From Raillietiella orientalis (lineage: Eukaryota): a DNA stretch of 64,000 bases. The notes under the pieces are model-generated. The model searched no databases. It worked only from the letters and a program-made list of their open reading frames with translations, and was not told the origin of the DNA. The translations under genes and the position numbers were made by a program. The stretch spans positions 744,001 to 808,000 of the forward strand of contig JAYWIR010000030.1 of NCBI GenBank assembly GCA_036172245.1. The letters run 5' to 3'. Below, one piece after another: positions 3,637 to 36,867 of this stretch. How positions within the stretch are numbered: position 1 is the first letter of the stretch; every line of letters starts with the position of its first letter.

Positions 3637-5267
3637 CACCTTAGAGCAGTTGCAATCATCAAAAGACAGGTTTAATTTACAAATGCGATTTTTGGAATTG
3701 TAAATTAGAAGGGAAAATTATCTCTACAAAAAATCTGGATCACAATATAAAAAAATGATATTATAACTATAATTTTATGGTTTGTATATCTACGCTGGCA
3801 TGACTTAGATTTCAATATTAAGTATCTAGCAGTTCACCCTTGGTATTACTTAAAGATTTTGTGATTCCACACTATCGGTACTATATCTTCTTTTCCTTAA
3901 GACTGTCCATCCATTTCTGAAACAATTGTATAGTACATTAAGCCGATCTGAAGACCACTTTATTTTGAAACGAATAACACTTCAATCAACAGATAGAGTT
4001 TAAAATTCTTCAAAAGAGATTTTGTCTTCAGATTGTCTATGAAAGTTGTATAACGCTGTTTACGATAATCAGCATGCTGAATTCCTTTTTAAGTTAAACG
4101 GACATCCCAGGTAGTTTTACTTTCACTTCTCTTGTTAGAAGTACCTTCTCCTGAAAAGCCATCGAGAAAGTCTAATCACAAATTCAGTGATGCAAATTTT
4201 CCTGTCTGAAAATATGGAACCGCGTTTGTAGTTGGGCGATCAAACAGGCGCAGTACCTTTGCAGAAAAAAGTTTGTGAAACGAACTCGGAAGTTCTTCCA
4301 GTGGGGGGCCACTTTTCGAGCATTCATAAGCGTATTCTTCGCAGGGTGGAGCTTTGCATTTTTTTTTTTTCGGACAGCAAAACGAAACAGCGTTTGCACC
4401 GACCGCCTTGAGGGAACAGCAGCGCCGTGGCACGGAGTGCCAGAAATCCCATTTGGTGCGTTTTCTCATTCCAGGATGCTTTTTGCATCTTCCCTCATCT
4501 ACCAGCAAATGCAAAGCCTCGTAAAGGGGAAAGTGGAAGTGGCGTGCCCGAGGTGCGCAGCTCGGCATGTTGCGAATCGGCGCAGCAGCCATCTTCGTCA
4601 TACGTCATCAGCGGCCGTTTCGAAACGGAGCGCCTCGGCCCTGCTCGCGTCGGCGGCGGAGTGGCAACGCGAAGGCCGGTCGGTGCTTCCTGCGAGCTCT
4701 GTGTGGAATCGCAAAGGATGTCGTCTGGAAAGGGATCGACTTCAGCATCGAATTTGCTTCCGCATTGTGTGCGAGGATGCATCGTTGAATAGCGGGAAAA
4801 TGCAGAGTGAATATGTACTCCCACTCCAGGGAAGAGAGGAAAATAGCGGAGTGATGTTCGGTGCAGAAACTGAGCCGCTTCGTGTGCCATAAAATGGAAT
4901 CGCAAGAGATATGGTAAGTGCGATGTTTGATCCAATTGATCGAATTCAAACAGTGTTGGATTACTGTGGTCAGGTTTTGTTTGTGTTTCCCTCCCTTGGA
5001 GTAACCATAGTAATCTTACAGTAGTCTATTACCAAAGTCTAACATTGGAGCAGCATCCCCACCTGTGCTGCTGTGTTTTCTTTTTCTGTCTTTTCTAGAC
5101 GGAGTTTTGTTCTCGTTCCGAAATATGAAATTTTGGCACCAGAGCACTTTTTGACATCTTGCTGCAAGAAGCAGGTTCTTATCTTGACATAATTTTGTAA
5201 AGCATATTCCATAATGTTTATTAGGCGTACGTTCCTGTTGAAACGTTTCCATTACTGAGAGAAGAGG

Positions 5268-7140
5268 ATGGAACAATTTATCTGTTGCTCCTGCAAATCT
5301 CCTCTGGTAGCGCAAGAATCCATCTCAGCAATTCCATGTGGACATATGGTCCATAGCAGCTGCTTACAACATCTTCCAAGGGATTCTCCTGCTGGGTAGC
5401 TTTTTGTGTAAATTACCGTCAGTGCTACTCAAAATGATGTCCCAGTTTTCCTAGATGCCCTATTTGCGACCATGTAATGCAACCTGGTGAAGAAGCAAGG
5501 AGATTGTATTTTACTACTGATTTGGTGGAAATTGACCCTAATGAACTAATCACTCGTGAACAACAACGAGCTGCACTTCAGGAAGCTAGGTATTGTGCAT
5601 TGATCAAATTTCAGCCATCTAAGGAATACAGTGTAACCAGTTGTAAACAAGAATTAGACATGATTTGCAGATTTGAAATATCCATTTACTAACTTGATCA
5701 GGATTTCATGTATGATAGCAAGATATTTGAATCATTCATAAAATTGTTATGAGTTACAGATAATCAAATAATTTATTTTATTTTTCAATACCAGTCAGCT
5801 GCTTTTTCATAAATCAATTGAAAGTTCTTCTCAGAAATACATCTAGAGACTGTTTGGCACGTTTACATGAGACCAGAACTGCTTATGCCGCCTTGAACAC
5901 AGAAAATGGTGAAGTTTTGTACTCCCTGAAGGAATGTCAGGAGTCCAAACTTTGGCATGCAGCAGTCTATGAGAAAATTGCAAAATTACAGCAGTAAGTG
6001 CTTGCTTTTGTTTTCTTTATATTCTTAATGCAAATTTTTTTAGCATTAAAGAGATATTAGAAGCTAGTAGTTCTTACATCGATATGTATAAAGCAAGAAT
6101 TCCAGCTGATCATGAAAATGTGAATATTTTATGTACACTAAGTGGAGTACTACACAGGTAGTCATGTTTTTTAGAGTTTTGTTGTTGTTGATTGTTTTTG
6201 TGGATCTCAATATTTTATCACTTTTGCATACGGATGCATTTTTATTCTGTGAATCATTTAATAGCTGTTCTAAGCAGCTTGAATAGAATGGAGAAAATTT
6301 GCATTCATTTCCTAAACTTCTTTTCTTCTTTTTTTTCTTTTTTTTTCCCATGGTCTCATACAAGATTCCTATTGCCCATTTTCTCTCAAAAATTTGCTTT
6401 GTGGAACTACTAAGGGATGTTTAATTCAAATCAGATATGAGACATTCGTTTCTGGTTTGCTTTGTGCTGAACCAAGTTTTCCAGGGTGCGTTAAAGTTTG
6501 GGAATTGAATGTTTGATGCTATGTCAGCACATTCTCAAATGAGTGTTTCACTCTAGGGAACTTCAGGGATGTCAAGCAGAATTGCAGTTGAAGAAGCAAA
6601 GGCTGGAGAAATCTGAGCAGTTAGTCACAGCCCTCAGAGAATCTGTGAAAGGCTTTGAAAGGAAGCTCGCAAATCGCCAACAGCAAATAGTGCAATTGAC
6701 TGAAGAAAATAAGAAGCTTCGTGACAGTTTGGATCACATAAGTTCAGCTATGGCTTCAACTACTGGTGTCACGAGTGGGGTTTCACATGCAAATTCTGTT
6801 CCCAGGCCGGAAGACACTGGTTCACCTAATCACCAAGGTATCTGAATAAAAGTTGTGTGTGAAAGTGTTTGTTTGCTGTCAAGTTGGTTCATCTGGGATG
6901 TTGGTGCGTCCTCATCAGAAGGTCTCTTCAGAAGGTTGCGGAAGTTGTTTGTCTGAAATGAAAAGGGGCAAACTCGATGGCAGATGGGGTGGTGAGGGTG
7001 CGGCCATGTTTTCTTTGAATTGCGATGACAAGAGACGTTGCAAGCAAGTTAAAGATAAGCAGATAATCCGGATTAGTTGTAAGAACTCTAAAAAACTCAC
7101 CAAAGTTTGGAACTTTTTGTGGGATCGTCCTCATGCTTAA
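5268..7140 (+). CDS. TRAIP: TRAIP-like RING-H2 + coiled-coil E3 ubiquitin ligase, copy 1 (exons 5268-5395, 5446-5589, 5835-5993, 6044-6157, 6557-6837, 6932-7140; 344 aa)
   Basis: Spliced frame is open. The RING CCSC-x14-CGHMVHSSC-x14-CPIC is followed by RLYF (TRAIP has KLFF), then a long coiled coil, then C-terminal KLDGRWGG and TKVWNFLWD, reminiscent of the TRAIP GxDGLGG and KLDTFLWS motifs. An in-frame stop lies upstream of the ATG. The last-exon acceptor is less certain. Confidence 0.8.
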
Positions 7141-7274
7141 CCCTTTTATGACGTGTGTCCCCAAATAAAATTCGTTTTGCTAATGCAAGACCAATGATGT
7201 CACGGGAGGAAAGCAGTGAAGCTGATATACCTCCCTTTGTGCATTGACGGTACCTTCAACATGTGTGCAGAATC

Positions 7275-8309
7275 ATGGAACCTATGGCCATTGGTTCCTC
7301 GAATAGTCCCAACAAGAGTGATTTGGGGTGCTCTCAGTATTTGCCCAGTTTTCTTTTGGGTGAATCTGTGTTGTCTGCATGTCCCACGAGCAGGCAATCC
7401 GCAGGATGCTCCGATCCTCTCCTCCGATCCTCTCCGAAGGTGGGAAGCCACTCGTTTTCTCCGAATGCGGATCTTTCTTCATCTAGGTTGGACAGGTGAT
7501 ATGCGTGTGCCGTGAGCGTTTTGTTAACTGTTGCGTGTTTCAGATCTTTTGGGCGTCGTTTTTCTCCGGAAGGACACGTGAATTTTTCCCATGGTCAGGC
7601 GGCGAGTTGTAATAAAATGAGAACGTCTGGCTGCAATGCAGGGCCCCCCGTCATCTCCCAGCTGCTGTCCCCATCGCTTCCTTCCAGTTGCTTCAGCGAA
7701 TCTCGATCCCTTCAACCCAGTTTGGGAATGTGAGTGGTGCAGATGACAATCCGAGTGCTTGCTTAGTCAGCAGACATCTGATGACAATACTTGGGTGACG
7801 GTATTTGGCTTTCTTCCATCAGCTTGCGCGTACATTCTGGAACAGTTTTCGTCCTATGGGAATGTACTTGAGCACATACTTCCATCTCGTGGTAATTGGA
7901 TGCATCTCCATTATGAAAACGCTCTGCAAGCCCACAAAGCCTTGTGCAAAAATGGCCACATACTTGGAGATGCCATTATGATTGGCGTAAAAGCGTGTAC
8001 GCACAAAGTAAGCAGCAAGTGAAAATGTGTGTGAATGCGCGAATTTTCGAAAACGTTGTTGCAGGACGCCACGAGGGATGCCACTTTGAGTGGCAGCGGA
8101 CCGAGGAAAGTGGAACACGTGCAAGGGTACACACCTCCATCACGACTTTTGTCATCTTCTAGTTGGGCAGCGAAAGCTAATCACGACGTCAGTTGTCATC
8201 CTGCGCGCATTCCTGTTAATCTGCTCCGTTGTAGGTGATCCCGTGTTCCCCAGTGCCTCAAAGGAGTAATGGCCTGATGAATCGTGCAATGGAATTGCTG
8301 GGATGGTGA
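7275..8309 (+). CDS. NUP35: Nucleoporin Nup35/Nup53, copy 1 (exons 7275-7495, 7544-7729, 7767-8007, 8065-8187, 8235-8309; 281 aa)
   Basis: N-terminal EPMAIGS..SP...QYLPSFLLG, Nup35-type RRM WVTVFGF...ILEQFSSYG...GNWMHLHY..ALQAHKALCKNG..LGDAIMIGVKAC, and C-terminal amphipathic helix GLMNRAMELLGW-stop. All introns are GT-AG and in phase. Confidence 0.95.
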
Positions 8310-8855
8310 AGTACACGTTTCAAGTCGAAAGATTCGTCATTTTGTGTGGTTCAGCATCTCGCAGAGTCATTAAAAATATTCAACATGGTTACATGGCTTC
8401 GAGGTGTCTAATTGTGATGAACATTTGTGAATGCATCGTAAGGGAGTGGTAATTGAGGTTTTCTTCTCCCTCTCCGTCTTTCTGTTGACAGCGGTGGCTT
8501 AAACTGGCGGGAAGTTTTCCTAGTTGGATCACTTTTGATGCTTGAAGCAATCCAGCCGGATGAATTCTGGGAAAATTCCCCCCACTTTTCATGGTTGAGG
8601 TTTGGGGAGGTTTTTTTTTTTTTTTTTGCTGATGTTTATCCAGTAACGATCGACATCTGATGCTGACCGCTCTCGAATTGTGCAGTGCTGCCTGTATCTG
8701 GATGGTAATATTTGCACATCAGGTTTCGAAACGAACTGGCTCATGTTGTCGTTGTGACAAAGTGTTCGTTTAATTGATCTAGCTTTATGAGGTAATGGTG
8801 AGGTACAGGAAAATATCATTTGAACCTCAATCAATTAAGAAATACGTGTTCCATA

Positions 8856-9664
8856 TCCACCCGCGCGACCGAGGTTCACCCTCCCAAGCGTGGCGCTCGC
8901 CGGGAGACTGGTTGCGCCTCGCTGGAGCGCGCGAACATCTGCGTGCATTCCTGCGAGGTTGCCAACTGCAGACTCTCGCTGACTGGGACAAAATAAAACG
9001 CTCATTGCGAGAGTTCTGCGACCAGTTTCCCCTCCTCGGCGTGACCCGGTGGCAACAACCAGTTTCCCCTCCATCAACTTCCTCCAGGTTTCGGGGAAGG
9101 GGTGAGGAACGACAGGAGCAATCTGCATGCCCGTCGTTCCTCCAACAAGCCCGACGTTCGTCGCCTGGCGGAATTCAAGGCTGGAGCAGAGGCAGGCCTG
9201 GCAATCCGGATCTGCCTGCTTACTGGACGAAGATGGCCAGGAGCAATCCACTTCAGCGCAGGTTTGCCGCATCTTGCGAGATTTTTACTCCTCCCTCTAC
9301 GCAAGGAAAACATCAGAGCGCGTCTTTGCGCCGCGTTTGCTGTCAGAGGGAGCGCCTGCGCCAAGGGAGGAGCAACTTCACCACTTAGACCAAGAATACA
9401 CGATGACGGAGATTATCTCCGCCATCGTGAAACTAAAAAAACATAAAGCACCAGGGGAAGACGGCCTGCCAGCGGAATTCTATCAACACTTCGCGACAGA
9501 GCTGGTTCCCCTGGTGCACCAACTATGTACGCTGATCCGTGAAGGTGGGGATGTCCCCAACTCGTTCCGGTCAGCTAGAGTACGTCTCCTGCCCAAGGGT
9601 GGAGACTTGCGCAACGTTGGCAACTGGCGTCCCATCACTATAGTGAATGCGGACGCGAAGTTGC
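8856..9664 (+). mobile_element. Tx1/L1-like ORF2 fragment: post-endonuclease linker and RT N-terminus
   Basis: WDKIKRSLREFC, FYSSLY, KAPGEDGLPAEFY and LLPKGGDLRNVGNWRPITIVNADAKLL are L1/Tx1-clade RT motifs. Confidence 0.92.
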
Positions 9665-10600
9665 TTGTTGCCACCCGGTCACGCCGGGGCGGTTATTATA
9701 AATTCTCTACATTGTGGTACAAGGCCCCACTACGGCCAACTCAACGGGACCTGCTGGGTTGCCGGTACGCAGACCGGCGCGACGCCCCTCGGCAGCGGAA
9801 TGGGATAGGGGGAGAAAAACAAAAAGAAAAAATAAAACATAAAAAACAAAAGGATTTGTGAGGGCGGGGAAGGGATCACGGTCCACTGGGAGGAGGATCC
9901 ATCCTTTCCAGGATGCCCTCGAGGTCCGTCCGTATAATTCCCAGGTGGGGCCATCTGATCGCAATCCGCAGGTAGTGGATTGCAAGTACTACGGCATCCC
10001 TGTCGTGGCTCGGTCTTCTCACGTCGCTCCAGCACGTCACAATCCCTCGTACGCAGCAGAGCGCTGCCAGGGCAGCGGCTGGTCGCAAGGCATCCTGCAC
10101 GAACAGAAGCCGAAAAACGTCTCTGGGCTGGCTGCCCTCCTGCAGCCGTAGGGAGGTACCAAGACGTTCCCACAGGGGTCGGAGGGCAGCGCAATCAACA
10201 AGGAGGTGGGGGAGGGTTTCCCGCTCCCTGCACCTGATGCATGCGGGATCCACTCGACCCCTGGTCCAGTGGTGGCGGCGTGCGTTGCAGGGTAGGCCCC
10301 AGTGCAACAACAGAAGCGCCGACTCCTGCCACATCAGGGGGAGGATCCTCGATCCAATGAATACCGGGGGCCACTTCAGTTCATCCGTCTGGATGCCGAG
10401 CAGCTCTCCCCATCTCACTAATCCTCGCGGAAGGACACTTCGGGTCGTGGAGTCTGCCAGTTCCCTTATGGACCAGCCGCTCATCAGCTTCTCCTTGCCT
10501 GCGATACGGCAGAAGACTTGCCACCTGGGCTTGCGGCTGCTGGAGAGCGCCTTCCTCAAGAAGGGCATCGCCGTAGCTAGGGGGGTTATCTCTGCCCACG
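9665..10600 (-). mobile_element. 5'-truncated Tx1/L1-like element: CCHC region and 3' UTR, antisense to its neighbours
   Basis: CIRCRERETLPHLLVDC zinc knuckle, T-rich tract after the stop, and the family terminal motif at 9665-9692. Confidence 0.9.
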
Positions 10601-12072
10601 TGCTTCTTGCGCCCCCCTCTTGCGCCCTCTGCTTTTTGTTTGCCCGCCCTCCTACTCGGCCAAGCTCCAGGCGCAAAGCCTGTTGAGGAATGCTCTGTGG
10701 GGACCTGCGAGGTCCAGGATCCGCCTAAAAGACTTGGCGGCTCCGCGTCGGGATGCTGGCTTGGGCATCCTGACGCTGGAGAGAATCGAGCTGCAGGTGC
10801 AGCTTCGGATGTTGGCCCTGTGCGCAAACCTTTGGTCCACTCCGTGGTGCGCTCCCGCGCGCCTGCTTCTGCGGCGCTGCACCGGCAGCGACGGACTTCT
10901 GTCGCTGCGGCCGCACACGGAGCGCCCCACGACAAGTTTCGGTTTCCCTTTGAAACCGCTCTACCGGCTCCTGGCAGCCCAGGAATGGATCTCCTGCCGC
11001 CCAACGAACTTTCAAGCCTGGCGGCAGGAACCGTTGTATGGCTGGACAAAGCACCAGGATGTCTCCCCTCCTGGAACTCCGTTGCGTTCACCTCTCCCCG
11101 TACTGCACGGTGGATGAGGTCTGCAGCAGCCAGGAGAAGTGGACTCGCCTGGCCGTCACGCCGCTCGCCGACGCGCTGTCAGCCCTCAGGGCAAGAGATG
11201 ACAGCTGCGAACCGGCGAGATGGGAGGTCGCCTGCACCATCTCAGGAACAACACGACCCATTGGCGGCTGGAGGACTTGCGAGCTGGCAGACGCCGCCAC
11301 GCCTCGCCACATCCCGAAGGGACTGCTTCGGTGGAGTGAACACTTGAGTGTGCCCCCCGAAGAACTTGTGGTCCCTCCCTCCTGTTTGAACACTTCTGTG
11401 TTCCCCCTTTCGTGGAAGCAGGACGTCATCATGCTGGGCAGTGGGGTTTTCACTCCAACCAGCGGTCGAACCGTGTTTCCGGGGGAGTTGTCATTCCAAA
11501 CTGAAAGCGGTGCGGGGAAGTGGAAACGCTCCCGCACCTGCTCCTGGACTGCGGTGCCCTCCTAGGACTTTGACGGAGGCTGGCTTCAGCTCTCCTGCAC
11601 CAGGGGGACACCGCGAGAGACTTGATGCGCCGCTTCTTCACGCCAGGCGGCCTGTCTTTAGGTGCTGTCGTTGCAACCGTGTGTTGCACCCGCGCCATCG
11701 ACAAGGCCCACCGAGAGCTGGAGAAGCTGGCCATCCTTCGTCAGCCCACCGGATTAGCCAGCACAAGCATGTCGTCGGCTGCCAAGTGGACCCATCTGCC
11801 ACAGGACGTAAGGAGAGAGATCGCCGGCATCCATCGCCGGTTCTGAAAGGAAGGAACGGTCGAACCAAAGACCCCTGTCCCCTGCCCTCCATATTTTTCT
11901 TTTTATTTTTTATACTGGTGTATTTGTGGTCCCCTCCTTCCCGTTCCGGGCTTTCGGTATACCGACCTGCGTGTCGGGGATCCCACCCACTTCGTCTTCT
12001 CTGTATCCTTTGTCCGGGAACTCTGTTCCCGGATAGTTTTTCAATGAACGTCCCGGCGCACCCGGGTGATAA
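10601..12072 (+). mobile_element. Tx1/L1-like element 3' part: post-RT region to 3' terminus
   Basis: LRNALWG..RSRI...LAAPRRDAGLGI post-RT motif and a degenerate CCHC; homologous to 31000-32447; ends tcccggcgcacccgggtgataa. Confidence 0.88.
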
Positions 12073-12617
12073 CCAGCCACCCCCCTGCGATCCTCTCGAT
12101 CTCCTGTGCGTTCTCCGCGGTGATCACGTGGATCTCCTGCAGGAGCGCCAGGTCGAAGTCACGCAGGGTGGCGGCCGTGTCCCGTCTGTTGCCGTCGTCG
12201 CGCAGCCCGTTGACATTCCAACAGGCCGCGCGGATCCGACAGCGACAGGCGAGTCCAGGTGTTATTCCCGGGAAAGTGGCAATGGGGCTCCCGCCACCTG
12301 GTCGGGCGGGACTGATGGAGGAATGGGGGCACCGCGCACCGGTTCTCCCTCCTCCATGGGGCCGATTCCTCGGAAACCGCAACGGTGGAAGGGGACGGGT
12401 TTCACGCACCTGCTCCCCCTCTTCCATGGGGCGGATTCGTCGGCTTGGCTGGACAGCGGGGGGGAGCGGTTTTGAACTGTCTGCTCCCCCTCCTCCATGG
12501 CTATCTCCTCCTCAGCAGGACTCATCGGTGGAAGGGGGGCGGCAATCACTTACCTGCTCACCCTCCTCCATGGGGGTGCCCAGCTGCTCGGTAGCGCAGC
12601 GTGGGAAAATCCCTTCC
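12073..12617 (-). mobile_element. Tx1/L1-like ORF1 end and APE endonuclease N-terminus
   Basis: RIRAACWNVNGLRD...FDLALLQEIH is the start of an APE endonuclease domain; it is preceded by repeated MEEGEQ-coding units. Confidence 0.85.
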
Positions 12618-14712
12618 ACGATTGTGGCCACCATTCTTTTCTTCATGCTTAGCGTATAGATCAATCCGCCAAAATCCGAGTTGATATCAGGTTCACATCA
12701 GCTTGCACCCAAACGTTTCTGCGCGCCCTGTTGCAATGGTCCTACCCACCACAACTTGAAGAACCCGCCACCCTCCGATGGGAGAACTCTGCAGGTCGTA
12801 ACAGCTCATCCCCAGCTGTCGGGTAAAGTGTAACTCGAGCGTGACTTACCTCTATGGCGATTCGCTTCGGCAGAAGGGACTCCTGAGAAGATTCCGAATT
12901 CCCCGGTCGCCACACTGCTGACTACGGCAACCCATACCTTTCATGTAATGTAGCGACGAATCAGTTACTTCAGCTGAACGCTTGGTTCACCTCACAGCTC
13001 CACTCCTGCTTTACATAATTCCCCACTGGGCCCGCCAGCACCAAGCGCAAGTTTGGCAGTGGTCCTTGAGCTTTACGAATGTTTTGCAACCTAGCAATGA
13101 CTTGTGAGTAATAGCGGTTTTTAAAAGTGTGATGCGAGCTGCCGACATGGTGGAACAGGACACGCTTCCTTATTCCTAAGCTTTTAATCCATCCGACCAT
13201 AGTGTCCCGAAGCTCCTAATAAGCAAACCCAGTTACAGTGGGACATCGGATCCATCGTACGGGTAACAACCCAACACACCCAACACAGTGGTCCTCAGGG
13301 TAGGAGAAACTGTTCGCGTGGCATTCAAATCCTACTCTGCGGCAGCTGATGGAAACTGGTACATCGGAGTCTCCTGCAGGTAAAATAGCTGGGACTTCTG
13401 AAATCAGCATCTGGGACAGAGAGTTTCAAAATGTAGATGCCTCTACTGGGAATGTGGATCTCCAGGTTAGTATCGTCACGATCCCCATAAATGCCCTTCA
13501 AACTAGACGGTTCATACTTCTACCTTACACAGGAGAAAATGTTGATCTATACCGGCGAAATATGGCCTTTGGATCTCTCAAGGCCATCACCTCATCGGTC
13601 AGGGCATTTTTTGTACAGGGAAAGCGGGAATTTGCTTCGTGTCTTGGTTAACAAAGGGATGGACATCAATGGAGACTCCTCAAAGGAATTGCCGAAAATA
13701 TAGCGAGGGCTGTTTACTATGTTGGCTCTTTCAGAGGGCTGTTGTACTTTTCGCAGTTTGCTGAACTTAAACATCAAAAACAGAAAAAGATACGATGGAT
13801 TTCCCCGTTATCAGGCAAACACTTTTAAGGATCGATCAAACTCCAGGGTTCCTAGGCTCTTAAACATCGGAGCCTTCTCTCCGAAGAAGCAAGCTGCAGG
13901 CATCAACTGAATTTGACGAGAATGCCTGAGCTTTAAATATGAGGTCGCCGCCTGTCCCATGGCTACTTCTTTAAATGTTGCAGTCGAAACAATTTGGTAT
14001 TCTCTCGGCTCTACTGTCTGAGGTGTTATTTCTGCATTGAAAACACGGAAAAGCACTGCCACAAATTCAAAGAGTGGCACGAGACAAAAGATTGATCTTT
14101 CGTATGGCTGGCAAGAACAAACAAGTGAGAACAACAGAGGTCTCGATTCCAAGGAAGGGAAGTGGAGCAGGAAAGGGAGTCTGCACCACACGCATAAGCT
14201 AAGACCGTACTCAGGACAAATCTGGTTTTCCCAAAGAAGAAGGGATAGGGAGCCATAGAAAACACCGGAGTAATTTCCCTCGCACCAAAGAAACAGATCA
14301 TTGAATAACAGCCCCCGAACGATTGGATCCTCAGCACCTAGAATGGTGGTGAACTACGAGGCTATGATGGGACGATGACAAACAGTCCAAGAACATAAAA
14401 AAAACCATGAAACGAGCAGAAAAGAAAGTGCTCGTGTTGCGGGGTGATGCTACCTTGAAAGAAATGGTCTCACGGGGACCTCCGAAACTCACTTTAGAAA
14501 ATTATAACAACAAGAAAGATCAGAGGCAAATCAGATGTGCGATGAGCGGCCGCATGGAGTGGAAAGGAAGAAACCTAGAAGGAAACACACCACTCAATCC
14601 GAAGGAAAGTCGGCAAAGCTGAAGAGCACACTGCACAAGGAAACTAATAACAGAAACAGAATTTAAACAAGAGGACTTGTGAATTTTCCATTTGTTATTA
14701 TTACGTTCTCAG
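12618..14712 (+). repeat. Segmental repeat B, copy 1
   Basis: Apparently identical to 22247-24341 (offset 9629); shared start acgattgtggccacc. Confidence 0.97.
12900..13410 (-). mobile_element. Degenerate SGNH/GDSL esterase domain, probably ORF1 of a CR1/L2-type element (second copy at about 22530-23040)
   Basis: AILPAGDS, VLFHHVGSS, LRLVLAGP and EVNQAF occur in SGNH block order, broken by stops and frameshifts. Confidence 0.5.
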
Positions 14713-15774
14713 GAAAATATGGAACCGCGTTTGTAGTTGGGCGATCAAACAGGCGCAGTACCTTTGCAGAAAAAAGTTTGTGAAACGAACTCGGAATTTC
14801 TTCCAGTGGGGGGCCACTTTTCGAGCATTCATAAGCGTATTCTTCGCAGGGTGGAGCTTTGCATTTTTTTTTTTTTCGGACAGCAAAACGAAACAGCGTT
14901 TGCACCGACCGCCTTGAGGGAACAGCAGCGCCGTGGCACGGAGTGCCAGAAATCCCATTTGGTGCGTTTTCTCATTCCAGGATGCTTTTTGCATCTTCCC
15001 TCATCTACCAGCAAATGCAAAGCCTCGTAAAGGGGAAAGTGGAAGTGGCGTGCCCGAGGTGCGCAGCTCGGCATGTTGCGAATCGGCGCAGCAGCCATCT
15101 TCGTCATACGTCATCAGCGGCCGTTTCGAAACGGAGCGCCTCGGCCCTGCTCGCGTCGGCGGCGGAGTGGCAACGCGAAGGCCGGTCGGTGCTTCCTGCG
15201 AGCTCTGTGTGGAATCGCAAAGGATGTCGTCTGGAAAGGGATCGACTTCAGCATCGAATTTGCTTCCGCATTGTGTGCGAGGATGCATCGTTGAATAGCG
15301 GGAAAATGCAGAGTGAATATGTACTCCCACTCCAGGGAAGAGAGGAAAATAGCGGAGTGATGTTCGGTGCAGAAACTGAGCCGCTTCGTGTGCCATAAAA
15401 TGGAATCGCAAGAGATATGGTAAGTGCGATGTTTGATCCAATTGATCGAATTCAAACAGTGTTGGATTACTGTGGTCAGGTTTTGTTTGTGTTTCCCTCC
15501 CTTGGAGTAACCATAGTAATCTTACAATAGTCTATTAACCAAAGTCTAACATTGGAGCAGCATCCCCACCTGTGCTGCTGTGTTTTCTTTTTCTGTCTTT
15601 TCTAGACGGAGTTTTGTTCTCGTTCCGAAATTTGAAGTTTTGGCACCAGAGCACCTTTTGACATCTTGCTGCAAGAAGCAGGTTCTTATCTTGACATAAT
15701 TTTGTAAAGCATATTCCATAATGTTTATTAGGCGTACGTTCCTGTTGAAACGTTTCCACTACTGAGAGAAAAGG

Positions 15775-17648
15775 ATGGAACAATTTATCTGTTGCGCCTG
15801 CAAATCTCCTCTGGTAGCGCAAGAATCCATCTCAGCAATTCCATGTGGACATATGGTCCATAGCAGCTGCTTACAACATCTTCCAAGGGATTCTCCTGCT
15901 GGGTAGCTTTTTGTGTAAATTACTGTCAGTGCTACTCAAAATGATGTCCCAGTTTTCCTAGATGCCCTATTTGCGACCATGTAATGCAACCTGGTGAAGA
16001 AGCAACGAGATTGTATTTTACTACTGATTTGGTGGAAATTGACCCTAATGAACTAATCACTCGTGAACAAGAACGAGCTGCACTTCAGGAAGCTAGGTAT
16101 TGTGCATTGATCAAATTTCAGCCATCTAAGGAATACAGTGTAATCAGTTGTGAACAAGAATTAGATGTGATTTGCAGATTTGAAATATCCATTTACTAAC
16201 TTGATCAGGATTTCATGTATGGTAGCAAGATATTTGAATCATTCATAAAATTGTTATGAGTTACAGATATGCAAATAATCTATTTTATTTTTGAATACCA
16301 GTTAGCTGCTTTTTCGTAAATGAATTGAAAGTTCTTCTCAGAAATGCATATGGAGACTCTTTGACACATTTACATGAGACCAGAACTGCTTATGCCACCT
16401 TGATCGCAGAACATGATTCAATTTTGTCCTCCCTGAAGAGATGTGAGAACTCCAAACTTGGCAATGTAGCAGTCTATGAGAAAATTGCAAAATTACAGCA
16501 GTAAGTGCTTGCTTTTTTTTTTCTTTATATTCTTAATGCAAATTTTTTTAGCATTAAAGAGATATTAGAAGCTAGTAGTTCTTACATCGATATGTATAAA
16601 GCAAGAATTCCAGCTGATCATGCAAATGTGAATATTTTATGTACACTAAGTGGAGTACTACACAGGTAGTCATGTTTTTTAGAGTTTTGTTGTTGTTGAT
16701 TGTTTTTGTGGATCTCAATATTTTATCACTTTTGCATACGGATGCATTTTTATTCTGTGAATCATTTAATAGCTGTTCTAAGCAGCTTGAATAGAATGGA
16801 GAAAATTTGCATTCATTTCCTAAACTTCTTTTCTTCTTTTTTTTCTTTTTTTTTCCCATGGTCTCATACAAGATTCCTATTGCCCATTTTCTCTCAAAAA
16901 TTTGCTTTGTGGAACTGCTAAGGGATGTTTAATTCAAATCAGATATGAGACATTCGTTTCTGGTTTGCTTTGTGCTAAACCAAGTTTTCCAGGGTTTGTT
17001 GAAGTTTGGGAATTGAATGCTTGATGCTATGTCAGCACATTCTCAAGTGAGTGTTTCACACTAGGGAACTTCAGGGATGTAAAGCAGAATTGCAGTTGAA
17101 GAAGGAAAGGCTGGAGGAATTTGAGGTGTTAGTCACAACCCTCAGAGAATCTGTGCAAGGCTTTGAAAGGAAGCTCGCGAATCGCCAACAGCAAATAGTG
17201 CAATTGACTGAAGAAAATAAGAAGCTTCGTGACAGTTTGGATCACATAAGTTCAGCTATGGCTTCAACTAATGGTGTCACGAGTGGGGTTTCACATGCAA
17301 ATTCTGTTCCCAGGTTGGAAGACACTGATTCACCTAATCACCAAGGTATCTGAATAAAAGTTGTGTGTGAAAGTGTTTGTTTGCAGTCAAATTGGTTCAT
17401 CTGGGATGTTGGTGCGTCCTCATCAGAAGGTCTCTTCAGAAGGTTGCGGAAGTTGTTTGTCTGAAATGAAAAGGGGCAAACTCGATGGCAGATGGGGTGG
17501 TGAGGGTGCAGCCATGTTTTCTTTGAATTGCGATGACAAGAGACGTTGCAAGCAAGTTAAAGATAAGCAGATAATCCGGATTAGTTGTAAGAACTCTAAA
17601 AAACTCACCAAAGTTTGGAACTTTTTGTGGGATCGTCCTCATGCTTAA
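15775..17648 (+). CDS. TRAIP: TRAIP-like RING-H2 E3 ligase, copy 2 (exons 15775-15902, 15953-16096, 16342-16500, 16552-16665, 17065-17345, 17440-17648)
   Basis: Same exon structure as copy 1 with an open frame; many replacement changes in exons 3 and 5. Confidence 0.8.
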
Positions 17649-17782
17649 CCCTTTTATGACGTGTGTCCCCAAATAAAATTCGTTTTGCTAATGCAAGACC
17701 AATGATGTCACGGGAGGAAAGCAGTGAAGCTGATATACCTCCCTTTGTGCATTGACGGTACCTTCAACATGTGTGCAGAATC

Positions 17783-18817
17783 ATGGAACCTATGGCCATT
17801 GGTTCCTCGAATAGTCCCAACAAGAGTGATTTGGGGTGCTCTCAGTATTTGCCCAGTTTTCTTTTGGGTGAATCTGTGTTGTCTGCATGTCCCACGAGCA
17901 GGCAATCCGCAGGATGCTCCGATCCTCTCCTCCGATCCTCTCCGAAGGTGGGAAGCCACTGTTTTCTCCGAATGCGGATTCTTTCTTCATCTAGGTTGGA
18001 CAGGTGGGATATGTGTGCCGTGAGCGTTTTGTTAACTGTTGCGTGTTTCAGATCTTTTGGGCGTCGTTTTTCTCCGGAAGGACACGTGAATTTTTCCCAT
18101 GGTCAGGCGGCGAGTTGTAATAAAATGAGAACGTCTGGCTGCAATGCAGGGCCCCCCGTCATCTCCCAGCTGCTGTCCCCATCGCTTCCTTCCAGTTGCT
18201 TCAGCGAATCTCGATCCCTTCAACCCAGTTTGGGACTGTGAGTGGTGCAGATGACAATCCGAGTGCTTGCTTAGTCAGCAGACATCTGATGACAATACTT
18301 GGGTGACGGTATTTGGCTTTCTTCCATCAGCTTGCGCGTACATTCTGGAACAGTTTTCGTCCTATGGGAATGTACTTGAGCACATACTTCCATCTCGTGG
18401 TAATTGGATGCATCTCCATTATGAAAACGCTCTGCAAGCCCACAAAGCCTTGTGCAAAAATGGCCACATACTTGGAGATGCCATTATGATTGGCGTAAAA
18501 GCGTGTACGCACAAAGTAAGCAGCAAGTGAAAATGTGTGTGAATGCGCGAATTTTCGAAAACGTTGTTGCAGGACGCCACGAGGGATGCCACTTTGAGTG
18601 GCAGCGGACCGAGGAAAGTGGAACACGTGCAAGGGTACACACCTCCATCACGACTTTTGTCATCTTCTAGTTGGGCAGCGAAAGCTAATCACGACGTCAG
18701 TTGTCATCCTGCGCGCATTCCTGTTAATCTGCTCCGTTGTAGGTGATCCCGTGTTCCCCAGTGCCTCAAAGGAGTAATGGCCTGATGAATCGTGCAATGG
18801 AATTGCTGGGATGGTGA
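17783..18817 (+). CDS. NUP35: Nup35/Nup53, copy 2
   Basis: As copy 1, except for a compensating -1/+1 indel pair near 17959-17980. Confidence 0.92.
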
Positions 18818-20749
18818 AGTACACGTTTCAAGTCGAAAGATTCGTCATTTTGTGTGGTTCAGCATCTCGCAGAGTCATTAAAAATATTCAACATGGTTAC
18901 ATGGCTTCGAGGTGTCTAATTGTGATGAACATTTGTGAATGCATCGTAAGGGAGTGGTAATTGAGGTTTTCTTCTCCCTCTCCGTCTTTCTGTTGACAGC
19001 GGTGGCTTAAACTGGCGGGAAGTTTTCCTAGTTGGATCACTTTTGATGCTTGAAGCAATCCAGCCGGATGAATTCTGGGAAAATTCCCCCCACTTTTCAT
19101 GGTTGAGGTTTGGGGAGGTTTTTTTTTTTTTTTTGCTGATGTTTGTCCAGTAACGATCGACATCTGATGCTGACCGCTCTCGAATTGTGCAGTGCTGCCT
19201 GTATCTGGATGGTAATATTTGCACATCAGGTTTCGACGAACTGGCTCATGTTGTCGTTGTGACAAAGTGTTCGTTTAATTGATCTAGCTTTATGAGGTAA
19301 TGGTGAGGTACAGGAAAATATCATTTGAAGCTCAATCAATTAAGAAATACGTATTTTCATAGTCAAGGGAATGCTATAAGAATTGCAATTTACTTAATCT
19401 GATCAGGACGAGTTGCGAAAAAGTTTCATCTGACTTCATCTCTGCTTCAAGTGTTACTCTTAATTTTTATAGATATGGGCTTCTTTCGTGTATACGGTTC
19501 ATTGAGGAATTCTGTTAGAAATGTGGCTATTCTGTTCGTGTGCAGTCTTTTCCAAAAGAGCTTTATGTTTTTTTAGGGATGGATTTTCTTTCCAGAAGCG
19601 TCATTCTAGCAATAATGGTGTCTTTGCTAATTTGCATTCTCTTTTGTTTGGGGCTGCATGCGTTTTTGGAAGGTTCGAGATTGATTCTTGACTGTTGGCT
19701 CTTTGAGAAAATTCAAGGATTATTTGCTTAAGAATGTTGATTGTTCTCAACATTTGAATTATGAGGCAATTCGCTAGTAAGGGTGCCCCAGTCTAGTTGT
19801 GATGAAATAGAGGATCATATCTGTAGACTTATAGGATGTTTGTGGGTGAACTGATTGGTGTTACATAGAGGAGTGCAAAACTGGCAATTTCTGCTTTCTA
19901 CCAATGCTAACTGAACGTGAACTAATTTGTCCACTCGCAGACTGGGCATGTAAAACTCCAGTTATATGAAATAATACTAACTGTGGCGTTTGTAATTGTT
20001 TTAAGTGTCTACTAAAGTGAGAAAACACGACATTGGGCTATTTTGTTGTGTGTTTTTGGCGTTAGAATGGAGAAGTAGTAAGGTGTCGGTGTTCAGTGAG
20101 GTACTGTGTAGTGTACCCTTAGAACCCTTGGTTTCTAAAATTCTCGCCGTTGAAAAACAAAACGCTTTTATCATAAGAATTAGTTTTTGTCCGTGTGTGT
20201 ATCCTGTCGTTTATTATTGCAATGAGTGTTGTCCACAGGGACATTTTTCGCTGAATCAAAAGTTGAGAGCCCGTTTCATTTCCGACATTTAAGATTGGAA
20301 TTTAATGAAAAAGGAAACGATTTTACTGTATAGAAATGGTAAAATACATGAATTTTGTCAACAGTGTGTAAGATTCACAGCAATAGAGGTGAACCGCGGT
20401 AGTGGGTTGTGTTTGTTTTCCGATGTGCCACGAGACAGATATAAAATGAATAGTAAGATATCAGCATCTTAACGCGAAACGCATGCTAGTATCTGTATTC
20501 CGTATTGTGTAGTTTGATTTGGAAACTGCATTGATATGTTGTGACGTCATCTATCGGTGAGGAACAGCTTTCAGCAAATGCAATACGAGTTTGATAGTCA
20601 GAGAAGACCTACAGTTAACTCCATGTAACCTGTTTTCCTTATGCAAGATTTTCCCCAGTTCAACAGGCGGTGGGGTGATTTTCTTTGACTACAGGTTGTG
20701 ACAAAAGCTCAACAAATGCTTGAGCACACTTTTAACTCAAGTTTCAACA

Positions 20750-21600
20750 GTAATGGCACTTGTTGAAGCCCACGCTGAATGTCTCTCATTCCGATGTGCC
20801 TCCTTTACGCTGTCCACTTGCGGATCGCCGATTCGGGAAGGAGGACTCGGCTCTGTTTTGCAGGCAAGAGTTCATCTTCAGTTTCCGCAGGATGTACCTG
20901 AGTGTACATACAGGCACTCTTCTGCAATTGAGGATTTCGAGTTCCTTCTTCAACAGTCCTTATGCAATCCGTTTTGCCAGCACATCTGTTCCTTGGAGGA
21001 GCCTCCACCTTCGCACCATGGTGCTGGTGATGAAGAAGGCTAAGGTCGCCCTCTCACCGTCGGGTTGTACACCGGGGCCAATCCGTTACCATTAAAGAGC
21101 TCACTCAGGATTTCGGTTGGCAACACGTTCTGCAGACCTGCCGCCCTTCTTACCGCTGTCCAATCATTGGTTAATGTCAAAGTGAGCATGTGGTGTTGGG
21201 TTTCTCGGTCACCACACTCTTTGCAAGCTTCGTCCTGCCTTATGGTGATGCGTTGGAGTCGGACATTGTCCTGGTAAAGAGGGAAAAGGGACCCTCTCAT
21301 GTTTCCGGTGGTGGGTCCATCCTCCAGATCACTGCTCCGATCGCATGGCAATTGATCTGCGTTGTGCAGCAAGGACTTCCTCCTCCGTGTACGGTCTGCT
21401 GATGCTGTTTTTCCAGTTGACTTCCTGTACTTTATGCCAGTATTTTTGGCCTCCTTTCCCAAGTTTCCTGGTCCAATGGGTCACTCTGCCTCTCATGTTG
21501 GTCATATGCAGGTCTATGAAGTGTTTGAATATCTTTCTGCAAAACCAATAAATGGTTTCTTATGTTGATCTCAGCGGAGCAGCCATTGTTGGGAAGTCTG
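20750..21600 (-). mobile_element. Degenerate L1/Tx1-like ORF2 C-terminal fragment of a different family
   Basis: ACKECGDRETQHHML is a CCHC-like knuckle in ORF 21040-21462; the surrounding frames are disrupted. Confidence 0.55.
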
Positions 21601-21700
21601 GTACATTAGTACCGCTTTTCTCGACGTTTGCTTGTGATTAGACTGGAAGTCTGGTACATTAGTACCACTTTTCTCGACGTTTGCTTGTGATTAGACTGGA
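21592..21700. repeat. 53-bp tandem duplication
   Basis: gaagtctggtacattagtaccRcttttctcgacgtttgcttgtgattagactg occurs twice head to tail with one mismatch. Confidence 0.9.
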
Positions 21701-22246
21701 ACTTATTGATTTTCACAGAAAAGAGGGAAAGGCTGTCTCTAATTTCCAGTGGCATAATGGAATAGAAGTACTTTAGAATCAGCTTTACAATGTGTGTATC
21801 TGTATCCAACTCCAATGCATAACATTTACTCGTCTATGCGCTCTGCATACGTTTGGAATCTCACATTCGTACCCTGCCTTGGTTCGAAGAATTCATTCAA
21901 AGGCTGATTAGTAGTTTCCTATTCAGTATCTCATAAATGAGCTCCATTTAGAATGCAAAATGAAGACAATACCTGAGAAGCTTCTTGGAAATGATCACAT
22001 CAGTTCCCTTCGTATCGTTTGCTAATAGTCAGATCCTTTGCATCAGGACGGAGATCCAACCGATGTCTACGTCCTGTGTTTCTCAATCACATTTCCGACT
22101 TCCACAACCCATTTCGGGAGGCAGCACCGCAATCTGGAATGTTTTCCTCATCAATTGGAAAAGATTCTTCTCTCTAAAGCACTGATAGCGTCAAGGAAGC
22201 AGGAGTTCCGGCTCTTTCGATGTTTCGATTTTAGGATACTGAAGGA

Positions 22247-24341
22247 ACGATTGTGGCCACCATTCTTTTCTTCATGCTTAGCGTATAGATCAATCCGCCA
22301 AAATCCGAGTTGATATCAGGTTCACATCAGCTTGCACCCAAACGTTTCTGCGCGCCCTGTTGCAATGGTCCTACCCACCACAACTTGAAGAACCCGCCAC
22401 CCTCCGATGGGAGAACTCTGCAGGTCGTAACAGCTCATCCCCAGCTGTCGGGTAAAGTGTAACTCGAGCGTGACTTACCTCTATGGCGATTCGCTTCGGC
22501 AGAAGGGACTCCTGAGAAGATTCCGAATTCCCCGGTCGCCACACTGCTGACTACGGCAACCCATACCTTTCATGTAATGTAGCGACGAATCAGTTACTTC
22601 AGCTGAACGCTTGGTTCACCTCACAGCTCCACTCCTGCTTTACATAATTCCCCACTGGGCCCGCCAGCACCAAGCGCAAGTTTGGCAGTGGTCCTTGAGC
22701 TTTACGAATGTTTTGCAACCTAGCAATGACTTGTGAGTAATAGCGGTTTTTAAAAGTGTGATGCGAGCTGCCGACATGGTGGAACAGGACACGCTTCCTT
22801 ATTCCTAAGCTTTTAATCCATCCGACCATAGTGTCCCGAAGCTCCTAATAAGCAAACCCAGTTACAGTGGGACATCGGATCCATCGTACGGGTAACAACC
22901 CAACACACCCAACACAGTGGTCCTCAGGGTAGGAGAAACTGTTCGCGTGGCATTCAAATCCTACTCTGCGGCAGCTGATGGAAACTGGTACATCGGAGTC
23001 TCCTGCAGGTAAAATAGCTGGGACTTCTGAAATCAGCATCTGGGACAGAGAGTTTCAAAATGTAGATGCCTCTACTGGGAATGTGGATCTCCAGGTTAGT
23101 ATCGTCACGATCCCCATAAATGCCCTTCAAACTAGACGGTTCATACTTCTACCTTACACAGGAGAAAATGTTGATCTATACCGGCGAAATATGGCCTTTG
23201 GATCTCTCAAGGCCATCACCTCATCGGTCAGGGCATTTTTTGTACAGGGAAAGCGGGAATTTGCTTCGTGTCTTGGTTAACAAAGGGATGGACATCAATG
23301 GAGACTCCTCAAAGGAATTGCCGAAAATATAGCGAGGGCTGTTTACTATGTTGGCTCTTTCAGAGGGCTGTTGTACTTTTCGCAGTTTGCTGAACTTAAA
23401 CATCAAAAACAGAAAAAGATACGATGGATTTCCCCGTTATCAGGCAAACACTTTTAAGGATCGATCAAACTCCAGGGTTCCTAGGCTCTTAAACATCGGA
23501 GCCTTCTCTCCGAAGAAGCAAGCTGCAGGCATCAACTGAATTTGACGAGAATGCCTGAGCTTTAAATATGAGGTCGCCGCCTGTCCCATGGCTACTTCTT
23601 TAAATGTTGCAGTCGAAACAATTTGGTATTCTCTCGGCTCTACTGTCTGAGGTGTTATTTCTGCATTGAAAACACGGAAAAGCACTGCCACAAATTCAAA
23701 GAGTGGCACGAGACAAAAGATTGATCTTTCGTATGGCTGGCAAGAACAAACAAGTGAGAACAACAGAGGTCTCGATTCCAAGGAAGGGAAGTGGAGCAGG
23801 AAAGGGAGTCTGCACCACACGCATAAGCTAAGACCGTACTCAGGACAAATCTGGTTTTCCCAAAGAAGAAGGGATAGGGAGCCATAGAAAACACCGGAGT
23901 AATTTCCCTCGCACCAAAGAAACAGATCATTGAATAACAGCCCCCGAACGATTGGATCCTCAGCACCTAGAATGGTGGTGAACTACGAGGCTATGATGGG
24001 ACGATGACAAACAGTCCAAGAACATAAAAAAAACCATGAAACGAGCAGAAAAGAAAGTGCTCGTGTTGCGGGGTGATGCTACCTTGAAAGAAATGGTCTC
24101 ACGGGGACCTCCGAAACTCACTTTAGAAAATTATAACAACAAGAAAGATCAGAGGCAAATCAGATGTGCGATGAGCGGCCGCATGGAGTGGAAAGGAAGA
24201 AACCTAGAAGGAAACACACCACTCAATCCGAAGGAAAGTCGGCAAAGCTGAAGAGCACACTGCACAAGGAAACTAATAACAGAAACAGAATTTAAACAAG
24301 AGGACTTGTGAATTTTCCATTTGTTATTATTACGTTCTCAG
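22247..24341 (+). repeat. Segmental repeat B, copy 2
   Basis: Direct repeat of 12618-14712. Confidence 0.97.
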
Positions 24342-25403: not shown

Positions 25404-27236
25404 ATGGCTATGATACAGAGGGAAGTATTTAATTGCGTCATCTGCTCAGCAGTTCTAGAACCTGTCGAATCCATCAGAGCAATTTCATGTGGGCATGTGT
25501 TCCATAATTGTTGCCTTTTTGACTGGATAAACAGGTTGCTTTTATAAGTTCTGATTAGCTCTACTCAAAATCATGTTCTAGTTCTTCAGCGACATGCCCT
25601 CAATGCCGTTCACAAGTGGAATACCTAAATCAACTTACACCATTGATGGATTGTAGTGATGTGAATGAAGTTCCTCAGAAAGTAGAAGACTATCAAGCAG
25701 AAATGGCCTTAGTAAGGTATCATGTATTGAATAAATGTCAGCTATCTAAGGAATGCAGTGTAATCAGTTGTCAATGAGAATTAGATATGATTTCCAGATT
25801 TGAAGTATCCATTTAGTAACTTGATCAAGATTTCATGTATGGCAACATGATTTTTGAATCATTCATTAAATTTATTTTATTTTTGAATATCAATTAATTG
25901 TTTTGATGATACATGAATTTGAAATTCCTTCATCAGAAAAGACACTGCTGAAGCGGATGCACACATGGAGATCATTTTAGAAAACACTATCCATTTGGAG
26001 TCACTTGTTGCAAAGAACAAAAAGTTGCTGTCAGACTGTGAGAACAGATTAAGTGAACTGGTGGATGCTGAAAACCAACTCGGATTACTTCAACAGTAAG
26101 TGTGTTAATTAATCTTGATCTTTATTGTAGTTTTTTTTTTCTTTTTAGCATTGAACAGATATTGAATCCAGATAATGAAGGGTACCTTCTACAGTTTCGT
26201 GTTCCAGATGATGAGGGAGTGAACACTTCATACAGGGCATGTGAACAAGTACAACGGTAGTGATCTTCAAAGTTTTGTCATTGTTGATCGTTTTTGTGGA
26301 TTTCAATATTTTATCACTTTTGCATATGGATGCATTTTTATTCTGTGAATCATTTAATAGCTGTTCTAAGCAGCTTGAATAGAATGGAGAAAATTTGCAT
26401 TCATTTCCTAAACTTCTTTTCTTCTTTTTTTTCTTTTTTTTTCCCATGGTCTCATACAAGATTCCTATTGCCCATTTTCTCTCAAAAATTTGCTTTGTGG
26501 AACTGCTAAGGGATGTTTAATTCAAATCAGATATGAGACATTCGTTTCTGGTTTGCTTGGTGCTAAACCAAGTTTTCCAGGGTGCGTTAAAGTTTGGGAA
26601 TTGAATGTTTGATGCTATGTCAGCACATTCTCAAATGAGTGTTTCACTCTAGGGAACTTCAGGGATGTCAAGCAGAATTGCAGTTGAAGAAGGAAAGGCT
26701 GGAGGAATCTGAGGAGTTAGTCACAACCCTCAGAGAATCTGTGCAAGGCTTTGAAAGGAAGCTCGCGAATCGCCAACAGCAAATAGTGCAATTGACTGAA
26801 GAAAATAAGAAGCTTCGTGACAGTTTGGATCACATAAGTTCAGCTATGGCTTCAACTACTGGTGTCACGAGTGGGGTTTCACATGCAAATTCTGTTCCCA
26901 GGCCGGAAGACACTGGTTCACCTAATCACCAAGGTATCTGAATAAAAGTTGTGTGTGAAAGTGTTTGTTTGCTGTCAAGTTGGTTCATCTGGGATGTTGG
27001 TGCGTCCTCATCAGAAGGTCTCTTCAGAAGGTTGCGGAAGTTGTTTGTCTGAAATGAAAAGGGGCAAACTCGATGGCAGATGGGGTGGTGAGGGTGCGGC
27101 CATGTTTTCTTTGAATTGCGATGACAAGAGACGTTGCAAGCAAGTTAAAGATAAGCAGATAATCCGGATTAGTTGTAAGAACTCTAAAAAACTCACCAAA
27201 GTTTGGAACTTTTTGTGGGATCGTCCTCATGCTTAA
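25404..27236 (+). CDS. TRAIP: TRAIP-like RING-H2 E3 ligase, copy 3 with divergent N-terminus (exons 25404-25534, 25582-25716, 25937-26095, 26149-26256, 26653-26933, 27028-27236)
   Basis: MAMIQREVFNCVICSAVLEPVESIRAISCGHVFHNCCLFDWINSSSATCPQCR is close to the canonical TRAIP RING (CGHTFHxxCLxxW...TCPQCR). All exons are open with the same phases as copy 1. Confidence 0.85.
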
Positions 27237-27370
27237 CCCTTTTATGACGTGTGTCCCCAAATAAAATTCGTTTTGCTAATGCAAGACCAATGATGTCACG
27301 GGAGGAAAGCAGTGAAGCTGATATACCTCCCTTTGTGCATTGACGGTACCTTCAACATGTGTGCAGAATC

Positions 27371-36859: not shown

Positions 36860-36867
36860 ACAATCGG

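Follow-up and report, generated by a model that had tools for sequence, protein, structure and literature searches.

An exon downstream of the RING finger diverges by amino acid replacement between tandem copies of a RING-H2/coiled-coil gene in Raillietiella orientalis

The DNA analyzed here (the window) is a stretch of 64,000 nucleotides from Raillietiella orientalis, positions 744,001 to 808,000 of contig JAYWIR010000030.1 in GenBank assembly GCA_036172245.1. It contains three tandem units, each consisting of a gene predicted to encode a RING-H2/coiled-coil protein followed, ~430 bases downstream, by what reads as an intact, compact Nup35-like gene (Table 1). Our subject is the third exon of the RING-H2/coiled-coil gene, in which every codon that differs between copies 1 and 2 encodes a different amino acid. 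The units are duplicates of one another. In self-BLAST comparisons, 4208-8850 matched 14713-19355 at 98.1% identity, 12618-15778 matched 22247-25407 at 99.87%, and 6151-8778 matched 26250-28873 at 98.9%; at that threshold, the stretch of copy 3 from 25407 to 26250 had no match to copy 1 or 2. Alignment of 4208-8850 with 14713-19355 gave 4647 columns with 89 differences. Among the noncoding columns of copies 1 and 2, 48 of 3813 differ (1.26%).

We built five-exon models of the three RING-H2/coiled-coil genes by hand, using GT-AG introns with consistent phases. The spliced reading frames are open over 277, 277, and 273 amino acids in copies 1, 2, and 3, respectively, with no stops or indels across the 3 x 5 exons, and the stop codon of copy 1 is overlapped by AATAAA. 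In copies 1 and 2, the 159-base exon 3 is preceded by ctcag and followed by gtaagt. When read from its second base (5836 / 16343), it reproduces the peptides given in an earlier note on this DNA, and frame +2 is the only one of the six frames that is free of stops in all three copies.

The N-terminal part of the protein resembles a RING-H2 finger. A scan against Pfam zf-RING_2 (PF13639; gathering threshold, 27.3 bits) gave 31.5 bits for copy 3, 25.7 bits for copy 1, and 26.7 bits for copy 2; it covered exon 1 alone, which holds the first two thirds of the domain, the finger being interrupted by intron 1. Splicing exons 1 and 2 yields eight zinc ligands of the C3H2C3 type, C-x2-C-x14-C-x-H-x2-H-x2-C-x14-C-x2-C, in copies 1 and 2, with x12 replacing the last x14 in copy 3. 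In a search of PDB, exon 1 of copy 3 matched RING-H2 chains (E value, 5e-6), with RNF165/Arkadia as the best match. In RING fingers, the contacts with the E2 include a hydrophobic residue between the first two cysteines and a Trp that follows the last His-x2-Cys. The corresponding sequences of copy 3 are C-V-I-C and F-D-W, which align with the same residues of RNF165/Arkadia, and at those aligned sites copies 1 and 2 have C-C-S/A-C and Q-H-L (Ser/Ala and Leu in place of Ile and Trp). That Ser/Ala site is the sole difference between copies 1 and 2 in exon 1.

The remainder of the protein, exons 3 to 5, looks helical or coiled-coil. The hydrophobic residues of exon 3 common to copies 1 and 2 have a 3.5-residue periodicity (resultant, 0.557; permutation p = 0.006), and exon 5 gave weak matches to many coiled-coil families in Pfam, PDB, and Atlas clusters as well as a steady register in a crude heptad scan. 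No B-box or SPRY match was found in Pfam scans of the exon translations, and the 277-amino-acid model has no spare Cys/His cluster that could serve as a B-box. With no B-box found between the RING and the coil, the protein does not fit the TRIM pattern. As judged from these sequence features, exon 3 would code for part of a small, E3-ligase-like protein in which an N-terminal RING-H2 finger is followed by helical or coiled-coil sequence; the protein may be an active ligase.

Table 1. Positions of the repeat units, genes, and exons discussed in the text, in coordinates of the window
Feature	Position	Strand	Description
Exon 3, copy 2 (main finding)	16342..16500	+	AG acceptor, GTAAGT donor; 1 base + 52 codons + 2 bases; predicted helical segment after the RING finger
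Exon 3, copy 1	5835..5993	+	AG acceptor, GTAAGT donor; only frame +2 open
Exon 3, copy 3	25937..26095	+	159 bases, same phase; 37% ungapped identity to copies 1 and 2
Exon 5, copy 2 (copy 1: 6557-6845)	17065..17353	+	predicted coiled coil and Ser/Thr-rich tail; differs from copy 1 by 10 replacements and one silent change
High-divergence patch, copies 1 and 2	5763..5960	+	31 differences in 198 bases; begins 72 bases inside intron 2, stops 33 bases short of the end of exon 3
RING-H2/coiled-coil gene, copy 1	5268..6845	+	exons 5268-5395, 5446-5589, 5835-5993, 6044-6157, 6557-6845; introns of 50, 245, 50, and 399 bases; 277 amino acids; zf-RING_2 E 1.4e-5
RING-H2/coiled-coil gene, copy 2	15775..17353	+	exons 15775-15902, 15953-16096, 16342-16500, 16552-16665, 17065-17353; 277 amino acids; zf-RING_2 E 6.8e-6
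RING-H2/coiled-coil gene, copy 3	25404..26941	+	exons 25404-25534, 25582-25716, 25937-26095, 26149-26256, 26653-26941; 273 amino acids; zf-RING_2 E 2.1e-7; strongly diverged from the start codon through exon 4 (the head)
Repeat unit 1	4208..8850	+	self-BLAST identity of 98.1-99.9%; three-way site classes
Repeat unit 2	12618-19355	+	same self-BLAST and site-class basis
Repeat unit 3	22247-28873	+	same self-BLAST and site-class basis
Nup35-like gene, copy 1	7275..8309	+	hand-built model with 6 exons and five GT-AG introns of 47-64 bases; 254 amino acids, ending ...GW stop
Nup35-like gene, copies 2 and 3	17783-18817, 27371-28405		open spliced frames of 254 amino acids

The earlier note had reported that 20 of the 52 codons of exon 3 are changed between copies 1 and 2, all of them nonsynonymously and with no indel or stop. 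Our recount agrees: 24 base differences, spanning 5839-5960, are spread over 20 of the 52 codons, and all 20 codons are replaced. These differences comprise 12 transitions and 12 transversions and fall 13, 9, and 2 times at codon positions 1, 2, and 3, a spread that points to selection seeing the protein rather than to a mutator blind to the reading frame. A backbone of Leu, Ile, Val, and Tyr residues is retained in exon 3. The counts of 10 replacements and one silent change in exon 5 were likewise recovered, from 11 changed codons; heptad positions b, c, e, and f hold most of these changes. Mapping of the exon 3 changes onto a heptad register, which the earlier note had also proposed, yielded no preferred face: a crude register scan was weak and differed between the copies, and about a chance share of the replacements (5 of 20, including Asn/His and Val/Ile) occupied positions a and d of the best single register.

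Rates were estimated by Nei-Gojobori counting. In the comparison of copies 1 and 2, exon 3 has 23.5 replacement differences in 124.5 sites and 0.5 silent differences in 34.5 sites, corresponding to a replacement divergence (dN) of 0.217, a silent divergence (dS) of 0.015, and a dN/dS of ~15; the silent count of 0.5 derives from one two-step codon path, TGG/GGC. The counts are 11.5 in 222.8 and 1.5 in 62.2 for exon 5, and exons 1, 2, and 4 have 4 replacements and 0 silent changes. Over the whole coding sequence, 39 replacement differences in 651.5 sites and 2 silent differences in 179.5 sites (Fisher p = 0.0055) give a dN/dS of ~5.6. Exon 3 holds 24 of the 89 differences of the unit alignment in 159 of its 4647 columns (binomial p = 2e-15). 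When 24 random hits were simulated, the probability of seeing no synonymous codon change was 0.003-0.008. None of 10000 codon bootstrap resamples, whether of exon 3 or of the whole coding sequence, gave a proportion of changed replacement sites at or below that of changed silent sites (pN-pS <= 0).

The noncoding parts of the repeat provide a comparison within the same alignment. Replacement divergence in exon 3 (18.9%) exceeds the 1.26% divergence of noncoding sequence (Fisher p = 2.6e-19) as well as that of the whole adjacent intron 2 (12 of 245 bases, 4.9%; p = 2.6e-5). Replacement sites of the whole coding sequence also lie above the noncoding level (p = 7e-12), and synonymous divergence (2 in 179.5 sites) is no different from it (p = 1.0). 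The dN/dS estimate and the Fisher test against the intron, both suggested in the earlier note, therefore support its argument against neutral decay, as do the GT-AG phases, which are consistent in the three copies.

The pattern recurs, more strongly, in copy 3. In gapped pairwise alignments, its identity to copies 1 and 2 is 98.8-99.6% in the 500 bases upstream, 63-68% in exons 1-4, 72-85% in introns 1-3, and 96-100% in intron 4, exon 5, and the next 500 bases. A tblastn comparison between the two head types detected only exon 1 (E value, 0.002-0.004) and exon 5; exons 2-4 were not found at E <= 10. The loss of similarity starts at the start codon or within the first codons (5271 / 25407), after more than 1 kilobase of upstream sequence at 99%, and fades ~100-200 bases past exon 4. 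Across this divergence, the lengths of exons 1-4 are nearly kept (128/131, 144/135, 159/159, and 114/108 bases in copies 1 and 2/copy 3), and the splice phases and zinc ligands are retained. Because the exons of copy 3 have diverged beyond the introns that lie between them, neutral change cannot explain their divergence. The boundary at the start codon (5271 / 25407) is unusually sharp for a conversion tract.

The relationships among the copies form a mosaic. The closest pair shifts along the unit, from copies 2 and 3 upstream to copies 1 and 2 in the head and copies 1 and 3 downstream, and no single tree fits. In exon 5, copy 3 has no private changes; those of copy 1 (5 replacements, 1 silent) cluster at 6597-6671, and those of copy 2 are 6 replacements. 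Shifting closest pairs and clustered exon 5 changes are what gene conversion among members of an array produces.

The explanation that we favor, and consider reasonably likely, is diversifying selection on the protein head, with the promoter, tail, and Nup35 gene homogenized by gene conversion. Concerted evolution through gene conversion or unequal crossing-over would thereby hold promoter, intron 4, tail exon, and Nup35 gene at 96-100% identity, and selection for amino acid change would drive and preserve differences in the head. For copies 1 and 2, most of these differences would lie in exon 3 and at the start of exon 5; in copy 3, the same selection would have erased recognizable similarity to the other two in exons 1-4. 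Because zinc ligands and splice phases persist, as do exon lengths and the 3.5-residue hydrophobic spacing, the fold presumably survives while surface and interface residues turn over. The variable helix might set the binding target or the partner with which a paralogue pairs, and the selective agent could be conflict (with a pathogen, with a selfish element, or over reproduction) or a need to stop the paralogues from cross-pairing. Replacements all round the exon 3 helix fit a changing recognition surface and altered pairing of paralogues alike.

Several observations weigh against this explanation. The exon boundaries do not delimit the patch that diverges between copies 1 and 2: 7 differences (9.7%) fall in the last 72 bases of intron 2, and the final 33 bases of exon 3 are unchanged. 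Relative to those 72 intron bases, a local control chosen post hoc, the replacement excess of exon 3 is not significant (p = 0.10); at the local rate of 9.7%, 3.35 silent changes would be expected in the exon and the probability of none is 0.035, so that the test falls short of being compelling. Taken by itself, exon 5 does not reach significance (bootstrap P = 0.11). The variable sites of exon 3 show no preferred helical face (p = 0.65-0.81), which counts against a single binding surface. Copy 3 was dropped as an outgroup for exon 3, having 37% ungapped identity and agreeing with copy 1 at 8 of the differing sites, with copy 2 at 10, and with neither at 6; the comparison covers three sequences and has no outgroup. 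The gene model was made by hand, its introns 1 and 3 are just 47-53 bases long, and a search for RNA data over 4700-8100 returned none. A word-based protein search with exon 5 and the Nup35 RRM exon ("longer" lengths only) found no homologue in libraries that missed even NUP35 and seem to be without animal proteins. A HMMER scan of exon 5 against 1.84 billion representatives gave 2 weak coiled-coil matches (E values, 4e-6 and 8e-4; 28-29% identity; 671 and 827 amino acids), which are not orthologues. As NUP35 itself went undetected there, the empty homologue searches are of little use for judging novelty and of none for judging how far the family extends.

The extent of the patch would suit a ~200-base conversion tract (5763-5960) imported into one copy from a distant family member outside the window, in which case the replacement excess would have accumulated elsewhere in the family and not in place after duplication. 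The clear conversion mosaic of the three copies and the clustering of the copy-1-specific exon 5 changes within 75 bases also speak for an import of this kind, as do the differences in intron 2 and the identical last 33 bases of exon 3. However, no donor is present inside the 64-kilobase window, and a neutral donor would carry silent changes too, yet none of the 20 changed codons is silent, an outcome that the simulation described above makes rare. We regard such an import as unlikely, and the absence of silent changes means that selection on the protein would still be required somewhere, namely in the donor lineage, even if the patch was imported. A different possibility is that copies 1 and 2, being 98.1% alike, are haplotypes of one locus misassembled in tandem, so that the exon would be a highly polymorphic pair of alleles under balancing selection. 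One public sequencing run (X1, taken by guess to be DNA, available as contigs at a depth of ~3, and possibly from the assembly's own sample) was placed on 4700-8100, and its depth cannot settle the copy number (3.7 in the shared stretch versus 2.4-3.0 in copy-specific ones). The assembly itself makes false duplication improbable enough that we give it little weight: the spacers after copies 1 and 2 differ (8851-12617 versus 19356-22246), copy 1 is without the 2.1 kilobases of upstream sequence common to copies 2 and 3 at 99.87%, and a third copy with a different head is present.

The same run bears on whether the differences are real. A 151-base contig over 5848-5998 has 21 letters that differ from copy 1, and the 18 that are listed all equal copy 2; another contig, over 5520-5670, has 5 copy-2 letters, and two contigs over 4909-5252 match copy 1 at copy-1-specific sites. 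The support from raw reads on which the earlier note had made its claim depend is therefore partial, being present for the copy-2 letters of exon 3; copy-1-specific letters are seen only at 4909-5252, and exon 3 of copy 1 is uncovered. An origin without selection, through decaying pseudogenes, sequencing error, or a mutation process targeted to the exon, could draw on the empty RNA and homologue searches. It is nevertheless largely refuted, and we consider it extremely improbable. Decay predicts similar dN, dS, and intron divergence together with stops and indels, of which the exons of the three copies have none; the copy-2 letters recur in read contigs; and the distribution over codon positions and the mixture of base changes match no known targeted mutator.

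The neighboring Nup35-like gene was identified by its RRM. Its RRM exon matched Pfam RRM_Nup35 (PF05172) with an E value of 7e-29 (100 bits against a cutoff of 24) and NUP35 in PDB with an E value of 3e-28 and, by eye, ~60% identity over the RRM; the N-terminus aligned weakly (E value, 0.12) with residues 15-62 of human NUP35. We had considered a processed pseudogene, given collinear homology within ~1 kilobase and changes of frame. This was rejected, because GT-AG mini-introns of 47-64 bases restore an open 254-amino-acid frame in all three copies, which indicates an intact, compact gene and suggests that short introns are normal for this organism. Introns of 47-64 bases occur in both genes (e.g., 5396-5445 and 5994-6043) beside others of 245 and 399 bases. 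This points to a use of mini-introns by the organism, even though intergenic sequence here is long, rich in guanine and cytosine (G+C; up to 65%), and laden with repeats. A fusion protein of RING, coil, and Nup35 was also rejected by inference, from the stop codon overlapped by AATAAA and from a by-eye reading in which no AG acceptor preceded the RRM exon in the phase required by the GT after exon 5. Copies 1 and 3 have identical 765-base Nup35-like coding sequences. In copy 2, two compensating 1-base indels, a deletion and an insertion separated by 18 bases (7453 and 7471 on the copy 1 scale), alter 6 residues of the disordered N-terminus. The statement in the earlier note that Nup35 lacks similar divergence thus stands for substitutions, of which the coding sequence has none, and needs amending for these 6 residues. 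Among the papers listed by a literature search, none paired NUP35 with a RING gene or TRAIP; they included papers on human immunodeficiency virus, NUP358, and TRIM5 and unrelated ones.

Other features of the window lie outside these genes. The spacers after copies 1 and 3 (8851-12617 and 29000-32450) are G+C rich, share a 1.4-kilobase stretch (10611-12068 / 31003-32444) at 75% identity, and contain long open reading frames, one of which weakly matches a reverse transcriptase zinc-binding region (PF13966; E value, 0.002, under the cutoff). They are probably decayed non-LTR (long terminal repeat) retrotransposons. Between copies 2 and 3, a 53-base unit is repeated 2.1 times at 21592-21701 with 98% matches. 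The G+C-rich right half of the window contains two inverted-repeat pairs, 36193-36847 / 51892-52546 (99.5%) and 39115-39919 / 45251-46056 (97.0%). At the end of one arm of the 655-base inverted repeat begins a fragment of eukaryotic large-subunit ribosomal RNA (36846-37360; Rfam RF02543, 184 bits, model positions 957-1444), isolated in G+C-rich repeat DNA. A full-length match to U2 small nuclear RNA (Rfam RF00004; 64 bits, threshold 46) at 54184-54361 may be a gene or a pseudogene.

Exons that diverge faster than introns have been described in several systems and are strongly overrepresented among duplicated genes. PMC3906575 reports 74 exons that outpace the introns flanking them; duplicated exons make up 55% of this set, and NPIP, GYPA, and APOBEC3G served as controls; TRIM5/TRIM22-type genes are listed among the positive controls, and one example has an exonic divergence of 0.20 and an intronic divergence of 0.04. 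Our locus resembles the accelerated exon evolution in segmental duplications described there (PMC3906575), with a divergence of 0.15 in the exon versus 0.013-0.049 in noncoding sequence, mostly replacements, in young duplicates whose noncoding sequence is nearly identical. As in accelerated exons, exon 3 diverges more than flanking intron sequence and has dN above dS, with the exception of the comparison to the last 72 bases of intron 2 (p = 0.10). The NPIP/morpheus genes of apes are reportedly an example of this process in segmental duplications. The present case differs from them in that the protein has a RING-H2 finger and a coiled coil, the copies are tandem rather than interspersed, and exons 1-4 of copy 3 are unrecognizable, with the break exactly at the start codon.

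Snake phospholipases and conotoxins are classic cases of exons evolving faster than introns, and the habu genome is said to contain venom genes of this kind. The genes described here share with venom genes the greater divergence of exons than of introns among tandem paralogues; unlike them, they have no signal peptide or toxin fold and encode a RING finger of the intracellular type. Tandem RING ligases of the TRIM5/TRIM22 type are under positive selection, and in them the C-terminal target-binding domain is variable. The likeness extends to the RING and coiled-coil architecture, the tandem paralogues, and the recurrent replacement, but here no B-box or SPRY was found in the Pfam scans, and the variable part is the RING-proximal head. 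In TRAIP-like ligases, an N-terminal RING-H2 finger is followed directly by a long coiled coil. Domain order and the size of the RING and coil are similar here, a comparison of architecture alone, whereas the best PDB matches of the RING were to RNF165/Arkadia.

These comparisons indicate that the signature of positive selection at this locus is clear but not unprecedented. Segmental duplications of apes, venom genes, and immune genes already provide examples of the phenomenon, so the locus is of value as a case and not for any new principle; in the literature searched, this type of protein is unreported among accelerated exons. A bolder proposal, which we think quite unlikely, is that the array is a germline set of E3 ligases with variable heads and constant tails, whose RING and first helices are driven apart by ongoing conflict with a pathogen or selfish element while conversion, halted by selection exactly at the start codon, homogenizes the promoter, tail, and Nup35. 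The pairing with Nup35 could then mean that the proteins act at or guard the nuclear pore. If our explanation is true, the array would be a very clean natural case of diversifying selection at the protein level against a background of concerted evolution, with neutral controls (introns, promoter, and neighboring gene) within the same few kilobases and a contrast that is ~15-fold in one exon and leaves no similarity in four exons of copy 3. The RING-H2/coiled-coil gene would then be a candidate conflict gene, and the array would offer a compact system for identifying the specificity-determining residues of a RING-proximal helix and for asking if the co-duplicated Nup35 gene plays a part.

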